Below, piece by piece: positions 5,184 to 28,120 of a DNA stretch of 29,539 bases. The position numbers and the translations under genes are program-made. Source of the stretch: a virus (Duplodnaviria > Heunggongvirae > Uroviricota > Caudoviricetes); the IMG/VR virus record IMGVR_UViG_2554235125_000005, positions 1 to 29,539 of that record; one strand, written 5' to 3'. Under the pieces are notes generated by a model. It was not told the origin of the DNA. It worked only from the letters and a program-made list of their open reading frames with translations, and made no database searches. Numbering within the stretch: the stretch's first letter is position 1; every line of letters begins with the position of its first letter.

Positions 5184-6362
5184 TTAGCTGTTGACCGATT
5201 CGGCCAGATTCACCAGATATTTATCGGTGATTCGCTGGCGCAGGGTCAGGCTTTCCAGTGGTGGAACCGGCGTATAGTCGTAGTCGATATACAGTTTCCC
5301 GGCCTTGAGGGTTTCCTTATCGTTCGATTCCTCGTCGAACCAGCATTCACCGTCCACGATGTAGCCATTTGATTTCAGCTCGCGGAATTTGGCGTTAATA
5401 CCGTCGACAATGTCACGGATAAGCGATGCGGTGATGGGCTTATCGACCGCCCACATGTGCGCCTCGGCCATCGTGTCGGCCAGAACCTGCGCGGTGCGGG
5501 TGTAGTTCTCAAACAGGAAAAGCGGGTCATCAGAGCAGGTACGGTTACCCCAGAAGCGGAAACCATCCTTGCGCACCAGCGTTGTGACCCCGGCCTCGTT
5601 GAGCAGGTCAGCATCGGTACCGGATGCCTGCAAATCCCAAAAGACTGACGCACTGATGCCGGTGACACCCTGCACGCCGACGTTAGACAGGGTTTTGTGC
5701 CAGCCGACGGTTTGGTCGATGTAGGCACGCAGACCGAGTGCGCGAGCGGTGGCGTAGGCCGTTGCGGTGGCGTTCGCGGTGGTGTCCCATGCGAGGAAGT
5801 CAGGCCAGATAACCATCAGTTCGCGCTGACTGAAATTCTCGCGATAGGCTATCGCTTCGGAAATGGTCTTACAGCCCCATGCGCTGACGTAACCAAATGC
5901 GCGTAGGCTGATACAGACCGACGCAAGTGCGACTGCGACCTCTTTGGTATCGAGACCCGGCACGCCGAGAATGCGCGGCTTAACGCCGGTGACCGCTTCG
6001 GCAGTCAACAGCGCCTTGATACCGGTGTATTTACCGTTCTCATCCGTGCCGCCGATGATGTTAGAAATGGTTTGCGCTTCCGCGTCGTCTCCGGCACCTT
6101 CTGCAACACGCACAACAACGGTGACTGGTTTTGACTGGTCGGCGATAGCCTGCAGGGAGGCAGACAGCGTGCCTTTTTTACCGGCTTTCGCAATGGCGCT
6201 CTGCACATTGGTAATCAGTACCGGCTCGTTGAGGGGAAATGTCGCGGCATCTGCATCGCTGGCCGTACAGACCATACCGACGATTGCAGTCGCGACCGTA
6301 GAAATAACACGCGTACCGTCATTGATTTCGATGACCTGCGTGCCGTGGTGAAAATCACTCAT
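5184..6362 (-). CDS. FI: Contractile tail sheath protein
   Basis: 392-aa ORF (MSDFHHGTQVIEIND...) first in the FI-FII-E-T-U-D operon. GGAG Shine-Dalgarno 8 nt upstream. Confidence 0.85.
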   Translation of the reverse strand: MSDFHHGTQVIEINDGTRVISTVATAIVGMVCTASDADAATFPLNEPVLITNVQSAIAKAGKKGTLSASLQAIADQSKPVTVVVRVAEGAGDDAEAQTISNIIGGTDENGKYTGIKALLTAEAVTGVKPRILGVPGLDTKEVAVALASVCISLRAFGYVSAWGCKTISEAIAYRENFSQRELMVIWPDFLAWDTTANATATAYATARALGLRAYIDQTVGWHKTLSNVGVQGVTGISASVFWDLQASGTDADLLNEAGVTTLVRKDGFRFWGNRTCSDDPLFLFENYTRTAQVLADTMAEAHMWAVDKPITASLIRDIVDGINAKFRELKSNGYIVDGECWFDEESNDKETLKAGKLYIDYDYTPVPPLESLTLRQRITDKYLVNLAESVNS

Positions 6363-6460
6363 CCGGTTAACTCCGTGGTTAGTGGGCGAGTGTTATTGTC
6401 CTGGCTGGTCTTGAGAGGGGCTATTTGTCGGCGATGGATAGCCGATGGCACATAAACAAA

Positions 6461-6489
6461 TCATAAAAAAGACGGGCATTAGCCCGCCC
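6461..6489 (-). terminator. Candidate intrinsic terminator downstream of the tail-fibre operon (minus strand)
   Basis: Plus strand reads AAAAAAGACGGGCATTAGCCCGCC. On the minus strand this is a 5-bp GC stem (CGGGC/GCCCG) with a 4-nt loop followed by UCUUUUUUAU, right after the G stop codon. Confidence 0.5.
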
Positions 6490-6493
6490 AGCA

Positions 6494-7090
6494 TTACTCC
6501 GGTTTAACCGGCCACTCGATACTCGGTGCCGTGGAGGTGTCGACCGCGTTCAGCGCCTGAATGTATTTCATCCATGCAATCAGGCTGACTTTGTCATCGT
6601 CGCTGATGATGCCGAGCTGCAGCTCGGTTTGCCACAGGCTGACAGTTCTTTGCGCCTCGGCCAGCAATGAGTTTTTTTTCTGTTGAGCCGCTGCAACCTG
6701 GCCGCTTTTCTGCGCATCCGCATCTGTAACCCACTCGTTACCATTCCAGCGGTCATAAGGCGTCAGCGGCTCGATGGTGGTCACATTATCAGGGTAATCA
6801 CCAAGCCCTGTCATCTCGACAGGCTGGCCGGTTTCGGTGTCATACACAGTCTCGCCCCGGTGGTCGACAACATAATCCCACCCATCAAGGCTGGCCGTGC
6901 GGCAAATGGCAAAACCTTCTTTCTCATCGACCGGCGCATCGGTACAGGAATTGGCAGGAATCCCCACGCCTACTGCAAGATACTCTGTGGAAGTCGACAG
7001 AAACTTGCGCGTTTTCCCGTCGTAGTTATAAACAGTCATATCACCGGCTTTAGTGGTAATGCCGATTTTATTCAATATCGCTTTCGCCAT
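6494..7090 (-). CDS. G: Tail fibre assembly protein
   Basis: 198-aa ORF immediately downstream of the tail fibre gene, the position of the P2 tail-fibre assembly gene G. Confidence 0.65.
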   Translation of the reverse strand: MAKAILNKIGITTKAGDMTVYNYDGKTRKFLSTSTEYLAVGVGIPANSCTDAPVDEKEGFAICRTASLDGWDYVVDHRGETVYDTETGQPVEMTGLGDYPDNVTTIEPLTPYDRWNGNEWVTDADAQKSGQVAAAQQKKNSLLAEAQRTVSLWQTELQLGIISDDDKVSLIAWMKYIQALNAVDTSTAPSIEWPVKPE

Positions 7091-19391: not shown

Positions 19392-20438
19392 ATGGGTAAG
19401 CAAAAATCCCGTAAAGCCGCTGCGCAGAAGGCCAGCAAGCCACAACAACTTACCGCCAGCGCACCGCCAAAAACGACAGCGTTCACCTTCGGCGAGCCGG
19501 TGCCGGTACTCGATAAGCGCGATATTCTGGATTACGTCGAGTGCATCAGTAACGGCAAATGGTACGAGCCGCCAGTAAGCTTCTCCGGGCTGGCAAAGAG
19601 CCTGCGCTCTGCCGTGCATCACAGCTCACCGATTTATGTTAAGCGCAACGTACTCGCAAGCACCTACATTCCGCACCCGTTGCTATCCCGTCAGGATTTC
19701 AGCCGTTTTGCACTCGACTATCTGGTTTTCGGCAATGCCTTTCTTGAGCAGCGCAACAGCGTCACCGGCCAGTTAATCAAGCTACTGGCCTCACCGGCCA
19801 AATACACCCGGCGCGGGGTCGACGACTCGATTTTCTGGTTTGTGGAAAACTTCACGCGGCCGCATGAGTTCGCGCCTGATACCGTGTTTCACCTGCTTGA
19901 GCCCGACATTAATCAGGAAATTTACGGCCTGCCTGAATATCTCAGCGCGCTTAATTCCGCCTGGCTGAATGAAGCTGCGACGCTGTTCCGCCGCAAGTAT
20001 TACCAGAACGGAGCGCATGCTGGTTACATCATGTATGTGACCGACCCGGCGCAGAGCGCGACCGACGTCGAATCGCTGCGCGAGGCGATGCGCAACTCGA
20101 AAGGGCTCGGCAACTTTAAGAACCTGTTTTTCTACGCACCCGGCGGAAAACCGGACGGCATCAAAATCGTGCCACTGAGCGAGGTCGCCACAAAGGATGA
20201 CTTTTTCAACATTAAGAAAGCCAGCGCTGCCGACCTGATGGACGCGCACCGCGTGCCGTTCCAGCTTATGGGCGGCAAGCCCGAGAATATCGGTTCACTC
20301 GGTGACGTTGAGAAGGTGGCAAAGGTATTCGTTCGTAACGAGCTGTCACCCCTGCAGGACAGGTTCAGGGAGGTAAACGACTGGCTCGGCATGGAGGTCA
20401 TCAAGTTTAAAGAGTACACCCTCGAAAACCCGGAATAA
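19392..20438 (+). CDS. Q: Portal protein Q
   Basis: 348 aa, P2 gpQ size, immediately after P. Confidence 0.9.
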   Translation: MGKQKSRKAAAQKASKPQQLTASAPPKTTAFTFGEPVPVLDKRDILDYVECISNGKWYEPPVSFSGLAKSLRSAVHHSSPIYVKRNVLASTYIPHPLLSRQDFSRFALDYLVFGNAFLEQRNSVTGQLIKLLASPAKYTRRGVDDSIFWFVENFTRPHEFAPDTVFHLLEPDINQEIYGLPEYLSALNSAWLNEAATLFRRKYYQNGAHAGYIMYVTDPAQSATDVESLREAMRNSKGLGNFKNLFFYAPGGKPDGIKIVPLSEVATKDDFFNIKKASAADLMDAHRVPFQLMGGKPENIGSLGDVEKVAKVFVRNELSPLQDRFREVNDWLGMEVIKFKEYTLENPE

Positions 20439-20480: not shown

Positions 20481-21704
20481 TTAAACTTCGTCTTTACTAT
20501 TTATCATTCTGATATAACTAGGCATACGAGGATCTGAAATTTTATATACCCCTCTAGCTGCCTTTGTAAGGATCGCTCCTTTATCAGCCCTAGTAAAACG
20601 CCCAATATAGTTACTCATGTGATAGTTACTTAATGAAATTCCCGTATCTTCTCGAATTTGGGTAATCCATTCTTGAATGGTAAATTTATTATCTTTGAAT
20701 TTGGCTGCTGCATAAAGTATTGATGGATAAACATCAGTCCTGGATGAAGTAACTGCGTTCTCATAGTCTCTTTTAAGTTGTCCCTCGGTGTTTACTACTG
20801 CTCGCCTCAAAGCTTCAGGAAGAATGTCGGAATTTACTTCGCTTTTACCAGATGATAATACTATATCTGCAGATTCCTTTCCTATAAGATGCGTGAAATA
20901 TGGAAAACCATTGCTAATTTCAACTATAGAGTTTTTAACGTCACTACTAAATGTTATACCCAAGCCACGCTCGCCAGTCTCAATTATTTCATGTAAATAT
21001 TTATCTTCAATTCGAGAGAGTTGAATTTCATGGAGGCATCTGTTCACAGAAGGATGACCTGCTATCAACGAAGCACCGTCACTGGAAATGCCAACTAATA
21101 AAATCTTCAAAGGACTATTGGAATCGCTAAGTTGTTTAACAAACTCAGCGACATCATGCTTAACGTCATCACTGACAACATCAAATTCATCTATTAAAAG
21201 TATTGCATTCAATTCTTCAAGCGCAAAACAGGCTTTACTTGGAGTAAGATCTTCTTTTTCTATCGTGATTTTCTCTTCGGCAGAAACGTCCGCTCTAAAT
21301 AATTTCAAAACATTAAGGCCAACACCTGCTTTTTTAGTAGTCTCTCTTTTATTTGCGGCATATTCACTATCAATAAATATAGCTGGCCTTGCAATAATAT
21401 CTTTGAATTTTGTTTTTTTATCACATCGCACTACAAAAATATTACTAGGTAACACACCTTCATTTTTCCCTCCCTCTAAAGTAGATAAGGCGAGCGAGCT
21501 TTTCCCAATCCCTCTCTCTCCATAAATCATACAATGCTTGCCATCAGTAGTTAAGGTATCGAGGATATGTTCCACCTCGTTATTACGTCCTTTCAAATGG
21601 GTAGGTGCCTCAATAGGTTTAGAGGGTGTAAAATATAAATCAACATTTTTAATTTTATTTTTTTTTGCTTTAAATTTACTGAATATGCTGCTAGTAGTCG
21701 TCAT
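20481..21704 (-). CDS. P-loop NTPase of unknown function (AAA+/STAND-like with C-terminal winged-helix-like region), cargo gene
   Basis: 407-aa ORF with Walker A GERGIGKS and Walker B ILLIDEFD about 100 residues apart. No ABC signature. AGGA Shine-Dalgarno. Strongly AT-rich codon usage. Sits between portal gene and cos. Confidence 0.6.
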   Translation of the reverse strand: MTTTSSIFSKFKAKKNKIKNVDLYFTPSKPIEAPTHLKGRNNEVEHILDTLTTDGKHCMIYGERGIGKSSLALSTLEGGKNEGVLPSNIFVVRCDKKTKFKDIIARPAIFIDSEYAANKRETTKKAGVGLNVLKLFRADVSAEEKITIEKEDLTPSKACFALEELNAILLIDEFDVVSDDVKHDVAEFVKQLSDSNSPLKILLVGISSDGASLIAGHPSVNRCLHEIQLSRIEDKYLHEIIETGERGLGITFSSDVKNSIVEISNGFPYFTHLIGKESADIVLSSGKSEVNSDILPEALRRAVVNTEGQLKRDYENAVTSSRTDVYPSILYAAAKFKDNKFTIQEWITQIREDTGISLSNYHMSNYIGRFTRADKGAILTKAARGVYKISDPRMPSYIRMINSKDEV

Positions 21705-22119: not shown

Positions 22120-22356
22120 CTATCGTCGGCGGGGCGGCGGAATAATCGGACCTCTCGCCGGTGTAAACGCCTCAATTTTCGGATTACTAATATCGTACAG
22201 CCTGCCGTAATTATCCCTGACTATTTCGGCGCACCCGACCAGCTCGGCGGGTGACAAATTCTCATTGACCATTATCCGCTGCAGGCGATGAACGATAGCC
22301 ATTAACTTAATATTTCTTGTCTGGTGCTGCGGTATTTCACTTGGTAGTCGATGCAT
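22120..22356 (-). CDS. Hypothetical protein (78 aa)
   Basis: ORF with GAGGGTGA upstream of its ATG and a Pro/Arg-rich C-terminus. Flanked by two related 60-bp repeats. No family recognised; could be non-coding. Confidence 0.3.
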   Translation of the reverse strand: MHRLPSEIPQHQTRNIKLMAIVHRLQRIMVNENLSPAELVGCAEIVRDNYGRLYDISNPKIEAFTPARGPIIPPPRRR

Positions 22357-22555
22357 ACTATCACCCTCGATGAATTTTAATCAGTGCCGTCAAAACGCCA
22401 CTATAAAACCCTCTCAGATCATGCTTCATTCATCACGGGCGTGTCATCAATAGCACATTGAGAAGTTTTGAAAGGCAGGACTAAAGCCTCGTGGGCTCGT
22501 TACTCAACCCCGTCGACGCAAAAAGCTAGTTTTTGCGCCAACACGGTTATCATGT

Positions 22556-22786
22556 TTAACGCCAGCTATCGTCTTCCCAAATCTCTTGTAATATGCCGCC
22601 TAATGTTTCTTTGTCTGCCTCTTTATCGAATCCGATAACCTCTACACCAGTCATTGACCCTTTCTTGACGTTAACTTTTATTGTAGGAAAAACGCATTGT
22701 ACTCGATGTGTTATTTCATTCTGAAAAGCATCAATGATCTGTTGCCCTAATTTTTGTTCTTTATCCAACGTGATATTGATTCTCAT
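22556..22786 (-). CDS. dinI: DinI-like protein (possible C-terminal module of a Tum-type antirepressor)
   Basis: 76 aa, MRINITLDKEQ...GGILQEIWEDDSWR; resembles E. coli DinI in length and in the N-terminal MRI.. and C-terminal ILQE.WE..D.W pattern, from memory. Downstream of a LexA box. Confidence 0.7.
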   Translation of the reverse strand: MRINITLDKEQKLGQQIIDAFQNEITHRVQCVFPTIKVNVKKGSMTGVEVIGFDKEADKETLGGILQEIWEDDSWR

Positions 22787-22789
22787 AAT

Positions 22790-22972
22790 CTAATCAGCCT
22801 TATAAAAATTATCATCTTCGGTTTCGTTATTCTCGCTGTTTGCTAGGTCTGCAATGAGAGTGAGCGCGAGCTTTAAGTCTGATGGCTTGCAGTTTGCAAT
22901 CAGAGATACCTCGGCAATAAATTGCACACAAGCCCACTTTTGCTGCGTTCGGCTGAAATGTTCGTCAACCAT
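22790..22972 (-). CDS. Small SOS-induced protein (60 aa), possible N-terminal part of a split Tum-like antirepressor
   Basis: ATG preceded by AGGAGG and a consensus LexA box. Same frame as the DinI-like ORF, separated only by TAG plus one codon. Confidence 0.5.
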   Translation of the reverse strand: MVDEHFSRTQQKWACVQFIAEVSLIANCKPSDLKLALTLIADLANSENNETEDDNFYKAD

Positions 22973-22991
22973 GGAATCCCTCCTACAGGGT

Positions 22992-23011
22992 TACTGTATG
23001 TTTATACAGTA
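22992..23011 (-). promoter_or_regulatory. LexA operator (SOS box) overlapping a candidate promoter -10
   Basis: TACTGTATGTTTATACAGTA fits CTGT-N8-ACAG with AT-rich spacer. On the minus strand TATAAA lies inside the box, about 25 nt upstream of AGGAGG and ATG. Confidence 0.75.
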
Positions 23012-23085
23012 GCACGTATTGGTAAAAGATGGGAAGAAAAAAAACGAATAGGGCGATTGTCGTATGTACATGATATGGATATAAA

Positions 23086-25308
23086 TTACTCTGATATTGG
23101 TTTTGATGCTTCAGCTATCGCAGCAACACGATTAAGGATTTTCCTGGCTTTAGCCTCATGCGATGGTGCTGTGGAAAATATTTCTCCTTTGGCCGTTCCG
23201 CGTAGCCATTTACCATCAAAACAACTTTTACCACCGGCCATCAAGTGCAGAGCTTCGCCCCGGCTGATATTAATGCCGGTTGTCAGATGTATCTCTTCGA
23301 TAGTTTTCGCTATAGCTGCGTTTTGCTCATCCGTTCCGTGTATGAATTTTCGCCGTGCTGCTGGCTTTTGCTTCCTGAGTCGGTTGGTTAGCTCTCGTCT
23401 TTCGCGTCGACTCAGGGGCTTTGTCAAATCCAGTACCGGTGGATCGTTTTCGCTTCCCGTACAGTTATTGACAGAACTCCGAGGGACGGCTTTGCCGTCC
23501 TGAAGGTCAACGGCCAAATCAACAGCATGCTTCGGAACAATCTTCCACTGAGTGAGTCGGGTTAATATCGGGCTCCCTGCACCTATGGAGGAATCGTAGA
23601 CCCCCTTAATACATACCGTTTCCTCACCGTACTGATTAAGCTCGGTACGCGGTTCATACAGTGTGCGCACCTGTAAATCATCGCGACGGACAAACGGTCC
23701 ACCCTGCGCATTAACATACCCAGCCCAGTCACCAGCGTCGGCGGCATCATGGACGGCGGCAAACTCAACGCTCAGTCCGTGCGCGGTTTCGGTATCAGCG
23801 AGGCGACGCAACTCACGGTAAACCGTCACCGGCGCACCACCGATAAACTGAAACTGACGGATGTGCCAGCGCGAAGCCCATGCTGAAACGGCGGGGGCTG
23901 TCTCTTTCAGCAGTTCACCACTTTCATCATCGGTTTCACCATCGAGAGCATAACCGTCGATATTTTTTGAGATGTATTTAGCAACATAGCCGGTTGCGCT
24001 GCCTTTCTCCGGGTCAATGGACTCGGCGTGGAAACGTGCTTTTTTGGCCTTATCGCTTTTCAGTTCGTGGCGGTCTTCTTTACACGCGTATTTACGTACG
24101 ATGGAGCGAACATATTCAACATCTTCCGGCAGCATGAACATCAGCATGTGCCAGTGTGGAGTACCGTCGTGATGGGGCTCGGCAACACGAATACCGAAAA
24201 TACGGACATCTTCCCGATGCAGTTTGGCACGGATACGCGCCCAGATACCGGTTAGATAGTTTTGCGTGTCAGCCGGGCTGGCACCGCTCCATTTGCTGTT
24301 ACGGTAACCGGCTTTAGTCGTGGCGTGATATTTCGACGGCGCGGTCAGAGTGTAAAACTCACCGACATAACCGAGCTCATTACAGATGTTTTCAAACCCA
24401 CGGATGCGAGTCATGAGCTCACAGCGGCGAATCGCAGGGTTAGCAACTGAGCCATCATATTTTTCAATCAGGCTGATACGGTTGCCGTCTTCGTCTTCGA
24501 GATCCAGACCTTTGAGAAATTCACGAGTTCGGCGCTTTTGTTCACGCCAGTCAGTCACGCAGTTTTTACTCGCATAGGTGTTTTTTTTCTTGCTGACGTT
24601 GCCGACTGCAATTTGCAGGTGTTCGCGCCACGTAGCTGCAACTCGGCGCAAACGACCACGCCACCACCCATCGTTAAACATCTTGGCGATAGCCGGTGCG
24701 ATTTCATCCGCGCCGACATATTTTTTTGCAACCCGATCCCAATGGGGTGGGATAACGTTGAATTGGAGGGAAATAAAGCCAGCACGATTATACCAGGTGT
24801 ACAGCGTTTTAAGCTCGCCGAATCCGTGGTCATTAATGTTGGCAAGTTCACCACGAATGAAATCAGCAATATCGGCGGCCAACAGGTCAACATCAGCGCG
24901 CGACATATCCGGGAGGCGGTTATATCGGGCGACCATATTAACCATGCGTGACGCCAGATATTGCATAAGCTGGGTATCAAAATGACTTCCAAAAACAGAG
25001 GTTGATACCTTGCTGTTGATACCCGCGCATTCGTATTTTTTTGCGACCAATTCAAGACGCGGCAATGCCTTTTTGCAGAAGCTGATCAAAAAGGCATTGG
25101 CTCGTTGAATACCCTGATTTTGCTCCAGCACTGCAGCAGTGCGATAAACATCTAACCGCACGCAGTCGGGCTGGAGAGAAAGCACCTTTTTCGCATGCAG
25201 CAAAGCCGCGAACATACGGTCGCGGCGATGCTGTTGCTCATAAGTAAGGTATGGGCTGGAGATTGCCGACCGTGGGACGTTCCACGGATAAGCGAATTGA
25301 ACAGCCAA
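23086..25308 (-). CDS. A: Replication initiation protein A (rolling-circle nickase)
   Basis: 740 aa, near the P2 gpA size as I recall it. Contains HWHMLMF and GYVAKYISK motifs resembling the metal-binding and catalytic-tyrosine motifs of rolling-circle initiators. Confidence 0.85.
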   Translation of the reverse strand: MAVQFAYPWNVPRSAISSPYLTYEQQHRRDRMFAALLHAKKVLSLQPDCVRLDVYRTAAVLEQNQGIQRANAFLISFCKKALPRLELVAKKYECAGINSKVSTSVFGSHFDTQLMQYLASRMVNMVARYNRLPDMSRADVDLLAADIADFIRGELANINDHGFGELKTLYTWYNRAGFISLQFNVIPPHWDRVAKKYVGADEIAPAIAKMFNDGWWRGRLRRVAATWREHLQIAVGNVSKKKNTYASKNCVTDWREQKRRTREFLKGLDLEDEDGNRISLIEKYDGSVANPAIRRCELMTRIRGFENICNELGYVGEFYTLTAPSKYHATTKAGYRNSKWSGASPADTQNYLTGIWARIRAKLHREDVRIFGIRVAEPHHDGTPHWHMLMFMLPEDVEYVRSIVRKYACKEDRHELKSDKAKKARFHAESIDPEKGSATGYVAKYISKNIDGYALDGETDDESGELLKETAPAVSAWASRWHIRQFQFIGGAPVTVYRELRRLADTETAHGLSVEFAAVHDAADAGDWAGYVNAQGGPFVRRDDLQVRTLYEPRTELNQYGEETVCIKGVYDSSIGAGSPILTRLTQWKIVPKHAVDLAVDLQDGKAVPRSSVNNCTGSENDPPVLDLTKPLSRRERRELTNRLRKQKPAARRKFIHGTDEQNAAIAKTIEEIHLTTGINISRGEALHLMAGGKSCFDGKWLRGTAKGEIFSTAPSHEAKARKILNRVAAIAEASKPISE

Positions 25309-27283: not shown

Positions 27284-28120
27284 ATGGCTAAATTTGGAGA
27301 TGGTGCGGCTCCGGCTATCGAAAGAATCCTTTCGGCTTATGGACTTAGCTCGCAAAAAGAACTTGGCGAAAAACTTGGTATTTATGCCAACAACATAAGC
27401 AGTTGGCTTGCCAGAGATAGCGTTCCGGGCAATGTATTTGTTGAATGTGCTATTGAAACGGGCGCAGATATCGGATGGTTAGTGACAGGGGAGCTTGCAA
27501 AAGCAAACTCTCCACGTGCGACCCTGAAGGGCAAAGAGCTTTATGAAAAGGTCATGGCTTCAGGTGGTAAACCTGTTCTGAGACGCATCCTTGATGCTTA
27601 CGGTTTTTCTATGCAAAAGGAGCTGGGTGATTTACTCGGTATATCATCTGGAACAATTAGCACATGGGTTCGGCGTGATTTTTTCCCAGGTGATGTAGTT
27701 GTTACTTGTGCTCTTGATACTGGTGTTTCGCTGGAATGGTTAGCAACCGGCAAGGGGCAAATGCGAACTAACAGAGAAATGGTCACATCAAGTTTTTCAA
27801 TTAAAAAATTTCGCCTTGAAGCGGGTGAGCTTAAGGACGCTGGCGAATGGCATCCAGACCCCTCGATGATACCCTCTGACTCAGAGGAGTTGATTTTTGT
27901 TGAAGGTGTTGGAGCCTCTTGGCTTGTCAACCGTTCTGCTTCGAACATAAGTAATGGGCGTTGGTTAATTGATATTGACGGCGCTCTTGATGTTTTTGAT
28001 GTAATTCGTCTTCCCGGCGGAAAAGTCAGGTTGTCAAATAAGTCTGCTGAGTTTGAATGCAGCATTACAGATATCACACCAGTAGGTGCTGTAATTTTCA
28101 CATTGGAAAAACACGTATAA
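27284..28120 (+). CDS. Immunity repressor, 186 CI-like, with tandemly duplicated N-terminal DNA-binding domain
   Basis: 278 aa. Two homologous about 60-aa segments (residues about 10-70 and 97-160, pattern I.RIL.AYG.S.QKELG..LGI....IS.W..RD..PG.V.V.CA..TG....WL.TG) followed by a C-terminal domain. No GDSM-type peptidase motif seen. Confidence 0.7.
   Translation: MAKFGDGAAPAIERILSAYGLSSQKELGEKLGIYANNISSWLARDSVPGNVFVECAIETGADIGWLVTGELAKANSPRATLKGKELYEKVMASGGKPVLRRILDAYGFSMQKELGDLLGISSGTISTWVRRDFFPGDVVVTCALDTGVSLEWLATGKGQMRTNREMVTSSFSIKKFRLEAGELKDAGEWHPDPSMIPSDSEELIFVEGVGASWLVNRSASNISNGRWLIDIDGALDVFDVIRLPGGKVRLSNKSAEFECSITDITPVGAVIFTLEKHV

Follow-up and report, generated by a model that had tools for sequence, protein, structure and literature searches.

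We analyzed a small operon under control of the SOS response in a P2/186-like prophage. It lies at positions 22556-23011 of a 29,539-nucleotide (nt) stretch of Caudoviricetes virus DNA (IMG/VR record IMGVR_UViG_2554235125_000005, positions 1 to 29,539), and this whole stretch is called the window below. The two genes of the operon, for both of which the minus strand is the coding strand, are named tumA and tumB here after their counterparts in phage PSP3. The LexA-controlled antirepressor route of prophage induction has already been established for phage 186. The record of phage 186 (U32222) holds a promoter, p95, with a LexA site overlapping its -10 element, and a tum gene of 146 amino acids (aa) between gene A and the right end of the genome. 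The gene is annotated 'expression repressed by LexA; inhibits CI DNA binding', and three in-frame truncated products are annotated 'modulates SOS induction'. The shortest of them, Tum95.5, has a GTG start and corresponds exactly to the DinI-like part of Tum.

In the Salmonella phage PSP3 (Eganvirus PsP3, GenBank AY135486), two genes lie directly after the A-like replicase gene. The note on tumA reads 'similar to 5' end 186 tum; UV induction of prophage', and that on tumB reads 'similar to dinI and 3' end of 186 tum'. A passage of Lemire et al. (PMC3121763) describes tum as split in two by a stop codon in the Salmonella prophage Fels-2 and in PSP3 and names the upstream gene as the antirepressor; it relies there on Bunny et al. 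2002 and on a personal communication of G. E. Christie. That is, the arrangement of tumA and tumB is already known, being named in the PSP3 record and discussed in that paper. Fels-2 can be likened to our locus through this literature description alone, as a phage in which tum is split by a stop. The same paper describes the gfoA, gftA and gfhA operons of the Gifsy prophages, which combine a LexA box, a DinI homologue and a small antirepressor with a repressor that is not cleaved. In the Gifsy prophages, which are lambdoid, the gene order is reversed, and the likeness to the TumA module is one of operon logic. In the prophage DuoHS of Escherichia coli HS, a deletion of tum abolishes induction by mitomycin C (PMC12055606).

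Our analysis indicates, with a probability of roughly 85%, that the module consists of two genes and serves as the operon for SOS induction of a PSP3/186-like (Eganvirus-type) P2 prophage. The anatomy of the locus, its homologies, the conserved stop codon, the operator, the geometry of the promoter and the optional nature of the DinI-like gene are direct observations of this analysis. The features of the operon and the gene before it are as follows.

23086-25308, minus strand: replication gene A, an open reading frame (ORF) of 740 aa, given as context; the SOS operon begins in the 113-nt gap downstream of it
23030-23035, minus strand: -35 hexamer TTCCCA of a p95-type promoter, placed by alignment with the annotated -35 of 186 p95, TTCACA
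23006-23011, minus strand: -10 hexamer TACTGT, placed by alignment with the annotated 186 elements, with an 18-nt spacer to the -35
22992-23011, no strand assigned: LexA (SOS) operator TACTGTATGTTTATACAGTA, whose first six bases on the coding strand, TACTGT, are the p95-type -10
22978-22984, minus strand: Shine-Dalgarno (SD) sequence AGGAGGG of tumA, 5 nt before the ATG, with an anti-SD duplex of -10.7 kcal/mol, kept in relatives
22790-22972, minus strand: tumA, gene of the putative 60-aa antirepressor, including the TAG stop; ATG at 22972; protein 97% identical to PSP3 TumA
22784-22792, minus strand: junction TAG-ATT-ATG, with TAG at 22792-22790, ATT at 22789-22787 and the ATG of tumB from 22786
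22556-22786, minus strand: tumB, gene of a 76-aa DinI-family protein, including the TAA stop (22558-22556), in the same frame as tumA

The original prediction, made from the letters of the window, had described an SOS box followed by AGGAGG, an ATG and a 60-aa ORF, and then a TAG, one more codon and an in-frame ATG opening a 76-aa DinI-like ORF. This order was present, with AGGAGGG at 22984-22978 as the SD sequence, the ATG at 22972, ATT as the single codon (22789-22787) and the second ORF ending at 22556. The conceptual product read through the TAG is 138 aa long, in agreement with the predicted figure of about 138. The gene tumA lies directly downstream of gene A, as in PSP3, where the order is identical, and the counterparts of gene A in PSP3, 186 and the E. 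coli relatives are labelled replicase or replication endonuclease. A 701-bp region around the operon had matches in P2/186-like phages and in 80 of 5,426 complete E. coli genomes. E. coli HS was not among the 60 of these 80 matches that were listed, and the type of Tum in DuoHS is not stated in PMC12055606.

The locus shares with PSP3 the site after gene A, the LexA box, the SD sequence, the 60-aa TumA (97% identical) and a DinI-like second gene. The junction GAT-TAG-ATT-ATG is also identical, a gp37-like ORF follows downstream, and the long CI repressor with two helix-turn-helix domains is 78% identical. The two differ in the cargo beyond gp37 and in the allele of tumB: TumB of the window has only 47% identity to its PSP3 counterpart and comes nearer, at 66%, to the C-terminal part of 186 Tum. 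With 186, the locus shares the genome position, the promoter, the 20-bp LexA duplex, the DinI-like part and a free DinI-like product, and the N-terminal core is probably a remote relative. In contrast to the two genes of the window, 186 has a single ORF in which about 14 codons form a linker, and its free DinI product comes from an internal GTG with a strong SD sequence (-12.1 kcal/mol) instead of a separate gene; moreover, its cognate CI is a 192-aa protein with a single helix-turn-helix and 33% identity to the window CI.

A near-consensus SOS box overlapping a -10 had been predicted, and the scans of the 29.5-kb window confirmed the box. The operator TACTGTATGTTTATACAGTA was the sole match to the LexA consensus TACTGTATATATATACAGTA at up to three mismatches; it carries two, and 100 shuffles gave no match (chance expectation 0). 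The window contains two perfect CTGT-N8-ACAG sites, one in the operator and one at 6985-7000, the latter having a G+C-rich centre and being within chance expectation. The box scans found no other LexA-boxed gene in the whole window. Among the relatives, a perfect CTGT-N8-ACAG lies 19-25 nt 5' of the tumA ATG in 27 of 27 loci. The operator of the window is the same 20-bp duplex as the LexA site of 186 p95, inverted relative to the gene.

The promoter and the operator of the window align with those of 186. In most TumA loci, the motif CTTC[ACG]CA is kept 18 nt upstream of TACTGT at a fixed spacing. A generic promoter scan missed this p95-type promoter, and its hits were at the level expected from shuffled sequence. 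From the sequence of the operator, we infer that LexA binds at 22992-23011.

The TumA family comprised 207 homologous clusters. Among the 120 that were listed, 81 were exactly 60 aa long, which was the commonest length, and the longer ones were miscalls of the start codon that run through the SOS box. In a 36-codon core of TumA, we counted 341 synonymous and 58 non-synonymous codon differences, and the variable sites were distributed over the three codon positions as 15/6/35. The core thus shows strong purifying selection.

The original prediction had left open whether a nonsense codon interrupts the induction module or two genes make it up, and had proposed to look at the TAG in related prophages. 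The results supported two genes and not a recent lesion. All 120 listed homologues share the C-terminus ...FY[KE]A[DE]. In 25 species-representative loci, a stop codon stands at this point without exception, and it is TAG in 15, TAA in 7 and TGA in 3. These loci come from Escherichia, Citrobacter, Enterobacter, Yokenella, Kluyvera, Pluralibacter, Kosakonia, Buttiauxella, Phytobacter, Atlantibacter, Winslowiella and others. When 1.84 billion representative proteins were searched exhaustively with a profile, 36 relatives were returned, nearly all of 46-87 aa, and no fusion of TumA with DinI. Thus, a single ORF joining the antirepressor and DinI parts, as in 186 Tum, was not found, and the stop is kept family-wide. 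The shared C-terminus, the use of three stop codons, the purifying selection and the absence of fusions together lead us to conclude, from these comparisons, that the stop of tumA at 22792-22790 is the true end of a conserved small gene.

The original prediction had pointed to 186 Tum, a protein of about 146 aa with a DinI-like C-terminal part, encoded at the same position, and this held: the protein has 146 aa, its gene lies downstream of gene A, and TumB aligned with its residues 71-146 at 66% identity over 76 residues (E = 4e-40). For the N-terminal part, directed profile tests gave matches of modest strength. A profile of 22 TumA homologues matched residues 14-49 of 186 Tum in a directed hmmsearch (E = 1e-5, 12 bits). 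In hhalign, the TumA profile matched a profile of 20 N-domains of the 186 type with a probability of 84% (E = 7e-6, 33 columns), aligning VQFIAEVSLIANCKPSDLKLALTLIADLA against VEMIARLTAEGTCQERDREIALNLIAEIA. The DNA alignment between the window and 186 also extends through the tumA region. In the library-wide profile search mentioned above, 186 Tum was absent from the results. Because the profile evidence is joined by identical synteny and a shared promoter, we think that TumA and the N-terminal part of 186 Tum are likely homologues, though remote ones.

Among the 80 closest loci of the 186 type, 77 carried fused 146-aa genes. As a separate observation, a free 63-aa N-domain of the 186 type was found after gene A at 2501-2692 of loci L111 and L112 (L numbers denote the loci of our collection); it is followed by a DNA methylase gene, and no DinI gene is present there.

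A model of TumA made with AlphaFold2 consists of helices at residues 3-25 and 30-50, joined at the conserved NCKP turn, and a disordered acidic tail. The confidence of the model is moderate (predicted local distance difference test, pLDDT, 66.6), and TumA is thus predicted to be a helical hairpin.

The alignment to DinI came out as predicted. TumB matched the Pfam family DinI (PF06183) with E = 6.6e-18 and 65.2 bits against a cut-off of 24.2, and it belongs to PHROG 189, the RecA filament binding protein DinI. Against E. coli DinI (PDB 1GHH; see also 7YWA), residues 1-75 of TumB were aligned (E = 1.7e-8), including the acidic C-terminal helix, which is retained as ILQEIWEDDSW in TumB against ILQETWESADDW in DinI. 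TumB differs from the E. coli protein in being phage-borne and in being the product of the second gene of an antirepressor operon, and its effect on RecA is presumed.

The operon appears as a mosaic when 22556-22972 is compared with loci L001 and L002: TumA is PSP3-like, and TumB has the mixed relationship given above. Over its first 35 nt or so, the DinI module hardly differs between 186, PSP3 and the window, and this suggests a recombination joint.

As in PSP3, the DinI-family gene of the window lies immediately 3' of tumA with a gap of 3 nt. Among the 25 loci, a DinI-like gene adjoins tumA in only 7, and in the other 18 none was found within 6.5 kb, even at E <= 1. Loci L004-L007 have the same 3-nt in-frame arrangement with a TAG stop as the window, and L013 has the junction TAA-GCG-ATG. 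In L024, the ATG of the DinI gene follows 2 nt after the tumA stop and is out of frame. In L028, the DinI gene begins 17 nt after the stop, also out of frame, and has a GAGG of its own (duplex -9.1 kcal/mol). Within E. coli, strain TW10598 has tumA with a DinI gene of the PSP3 type, and strain FORC 064 has tumA alone. Comparison of these loci indicates that the module is built from separable parts: the small antirepressor gene is constant, the DinI gene is an optional neighbour, and in the 186 lineage the two are fused, with the start codon and the ribosome site of the DinI gene retained as an internal start. This picture agrees with the idea of a fusion between an antirepressor and DinI that was already voiced by Lemire et al. 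(PMC3121763).

The DinI-like gene of L013, a metagenome-assembled genome of Atlantibacter, matched at 6687-6907 as two overlapping pieces in different frames. These matches suggest a frameshifted pseudogene or an assembly error.

The candidate target of TumA in the window is the following gene.

27284-28120, plus strand: CI-type immunity repressor, with two Phage_CI_repr domains and Phage_CI_C

This CI has 278 aa, and its two tandem Phage_CI_repr helix-turn-helix domains stand before Phage_CI_C. It is the counterpart of the PSP3 CI of 286 aa (78%) and of the 186 CI of 192 aa with one helix-turn-helix (33%). The autocleavage domain Peptidase_S24 was not among its Pfam matches, and for this reason the repressor would need an inducer of the antirepressor type.

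Taken together, the position, the aligned promoter and operator, the match of the C-terminal part and the profile matches of the N-terminal part bear out the proposal of a Tum-type induction module under LexA control. We think that it may work as follows. In the lysogen, LexA of the host would occupy the operator overlapping the p95-type -10 and keep the operon off, and upon DNA damage LexA would be cleaved and the operon transcribed. TumA, like the N-terminal part of 186 Tum, would then bind the prophage CI and block its binding to DNA, so that lytic growth begins. Ribosomes would terminate at the TAG of tumA and restart at the adjacent ATG of tumB. TumB, made as a free protein of the DinI type, would act on RecA filaments and modulate the SOS signal; it would be an optional accessory outside the antirepressor. 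By analogy with 186 and PSP3, TumA would have antirepressor activity against the window CI.

The distribution of CI types is consistent with this proposal. The long CI with two helix-turn-helix domains accompanies TumA in 20 of 22 loci, and the CI of the 186 type accompanies the 186-type Tum in 68 of 69. Such pairing fits the matching of antirepressor and repressor, and we regard it as supportive only.

Several points weigh against the reading of the module as a TumA-driven induction operon. The evidence at the window locus comes entirely from sequence analysis. BLASTP gave no similarity between TumA and 186 Tum, and their homology rests on synteny and on the directed profile tests, whose values (12 bits; 84% in hhalign) are modest. 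The p95-type hexamers TTCCCA and TACTGT are weak, and the generic scan missed them. The assignment of the antirepressor in PSP3, as it stands in the passage of PMC3121763, is in print only as a personal communication cited at second hand. The pairing of Tum and CI types is confounded by common descent, since the two types represent two phage lineages, and it has an exception in L077. Finally, deletion of the dinI homologues in the Gifsy prophages had no measurable effect on induction (PMC3121763), and the role proposed for TumB is uncertain for this reason.

The exceptional locus L077 (IMGVR_UViG_3300011753_000049) carries a fused 186-type Tum at 6158-6598, whose N-domain is 91% identical to that of 186, beside a long CI. 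This CI has two helix-turn-helix domains (ORF 1035-1922) and is 46% identical to the window CI and 30% to the 186 CI. The closest genome locus that we found was L004 (Escherichia sp. E1V33, NZ_RHJI01000004.1), with 100% identity in TumA and 97% in TumB; its CI is only about 72% identical despite the near identity of the two Tum proteins, and therefore the immunity region appears to have been exchanged between close prophages. We found no discussion of the meaning of a doubled DNA-binding domain for the assembly of 186-type repressors.

The next point concerns the translation of tumB, for which the original prediction had noted the lack of a convincing SD sequence. Our calculation agreed with this. 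The anti-SD duplex before tumB was -3.8 kcal/mol with a spacing of 10 nt, compared with -10.7 kcal/mol for tumA and -12.1 kcal/mol for the internal start of Tum95.5 in 186. The value for tumB is at background level, as 26% of random positions in the window reach -4.0 kcal/mol. Since the stop and the start are 3 nt apart and tumB has no usable ribosome-binding site, the most economical and most likely explanation is that tumB is translated by termination-reinitiation coupled to tumA.

Alternatively, tumB might be translated independently, either from the weak UAAGG at the end of tumA or from an internal transcript. Such a UAAGG does lie upstream of the ATG, and the DinI gene of L028 with its own GAGG shows that independent initiation exists in the family. 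However, the duplex energy and the spacing speak against initiation at this place, and the AAGG is accounted for by the conserved Lys-Ala codons of TumA, being present also where no DinI gene follows. As for a transcript, the sole promoter-like match nearby lies inside tumB (22725-22696), and the hits of the region were at shuffle expectation. We therefore consider independent translation unlikely, although it deserves weight, and prefer coupling to tumA.

We also considered whether the 60-aa protein is some other small SOS-induced phage factor, the induction depending on another gene. TumA gave nothing significant in Pfam (the only listed family was Vg_Tdu with E = 0.03 and 14.6 bits against a cut-off of 27 bits) and no match in the PDB, so that it has no Pfam family and no solved relative. 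It is labelled 'hypothetical protein' in RefSeq entries of E. coli and 'unknown function' in PHROGs, and its link to 186 Tum is remote. These facts would suit a different function. Against it stand the exact synteny and the promoter and operator in common with 186 tum, and the PSP3 annotation and the literature (PMC3121763) assign antirepressor activity. In addition, a second LexA-boxed gene was not found in the window, and the absence of Peptidase_S24 from the Pfam matches of CI also disfavors this account. A different function of TumA thus seems quite improbable, and we retain TumA as the putative antirepressor.

A more speculative idea, to which we give very little credence, is that, in the sub-lineage that has exactly this junction, the in-frame TAG-ATT-ATG without an SD sequence is a device in itself and no accident of history. 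It would tie the synthesis of TumB strictly to the translation of tumA, or it would allow a minor read-through that gives a 138-aa fusion resembling 186 Tum, with its own part in the timing of induction.

Still less probable is a programmed or suppressor-dependent read-through of the amber codon in which the functional 138-aa fusion is the real antirepressor. It is true that the in-frame TAG-ATT-ATG is identical in PSP3, phage 613R3, L004-L005 and L007 (TAG-TTT-ATG in L006), that TAG is the commonest stop (15 of 25 loci), and that the fused form is the active antirepressor in 186. However, TAA or TGA takes the place of TAG in 10 of the 25 loci, L024 and L028 have the DinI gene in another frame than tumA, and 18 loci lack it, so that the combination of a specific leaky stop with a conserved in-frame ORF, by which programmed read-through is recognized, was not seen. 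Furthermore, the literature assigns the antirepressor to the upstream gene of PSP3 alone (PMC3121763), and stand-alone N-domains occur also in the 186-type family. We rejected this explanation on the basis of the variable stops and the out-of-frame or absent DinI gene.

The possibility that the TAG arose lately by nonsense mutation, or reflects an error of sequencing, in a former 186-type tum, the module being a decaying pseudogene, is negligible and was rejected on the conservation of the stop across the family: both ORFs are in the same frame one codon apart and the homologous 186 gene is a single 146-aa ORF, but the same stop position, with all three stop codons, is found in the 120 listed homologues and the 25 multi-genus loci, purifying selection on the TumA core is strong, the 1.84 billion representatives include no fused protein of the TumA type, and 186 tum has about 14 extra linker codons relative to the window, so that the two forms differ by more than one change from stop to sense.

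The practical value lies in annotation: TumA, which 80 of the 5,426 complete E. coli genomes carry and which is listed as hypothetical or of unknown function, probably induces a group of P2-like prophages that is widespread in enterobacteria. To the known arrangement, our survey adds that the antirepressor commonly occurs as a free protein of about 60 aa, the fused 186 Tum being the exception, and that the DinI gene is an optional add-on, as counted in the species-level loci (7 of 25).

Two contigs that carry this enterobacterial prophage module have unexpected labels, namely 'Bacillota bacterium MAG' (L009) and 'Chryseobacterium sp. 18061' (L011). The latter hardly differs from the Citrobacter locus L012. 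These labels probably result from contamination or misbinning.

Downstream of tumB, one further element was found at the position of the partial terminator t95a of 186.

22505-22549, minus strand: long hairpin without a U tract, 3' of tumB

A 126-nt segment containing this hairpin folds at -39 kcal/mol (z = -2.8 against shuffles), and a terminator scan called no terminator after tumB. The hairpin is possibly a partial terminator or an element that stabilises the RNA.

Beyond it lies a 78-aa ORF (22120-22356, minus strand), which belongs to phrog_11386, labelled unknown function, and is the positional counterpart of PSP3 gp37. Between the SOS operon and a portal-like gene (19392-20438, plus strand), we found a gene for a 407-aa STAND/AAA nucleoside triphosphatase (20481-21704, minus strand). 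It matched Pfam nSTAND1 (1.8e-8), phrog_6841 and the PADLOC candidate PDC-S59 (1.8e-7), and it occupies the slot of 186 orf97, which is annotated as a gene whose expression blocks 186 infection. It is probably variable cargo or a gene for defence, and the SOS promoter might drive its transcription.

On the other side of the operon, the block ATCCATATCATGTACATAC stands at 23062-23080 (minus strand), immediately 3' of the stop of gene A. This block is kept in 186, PSP3 and most loci of the TumA type, and the intergenic flanks around it vary.

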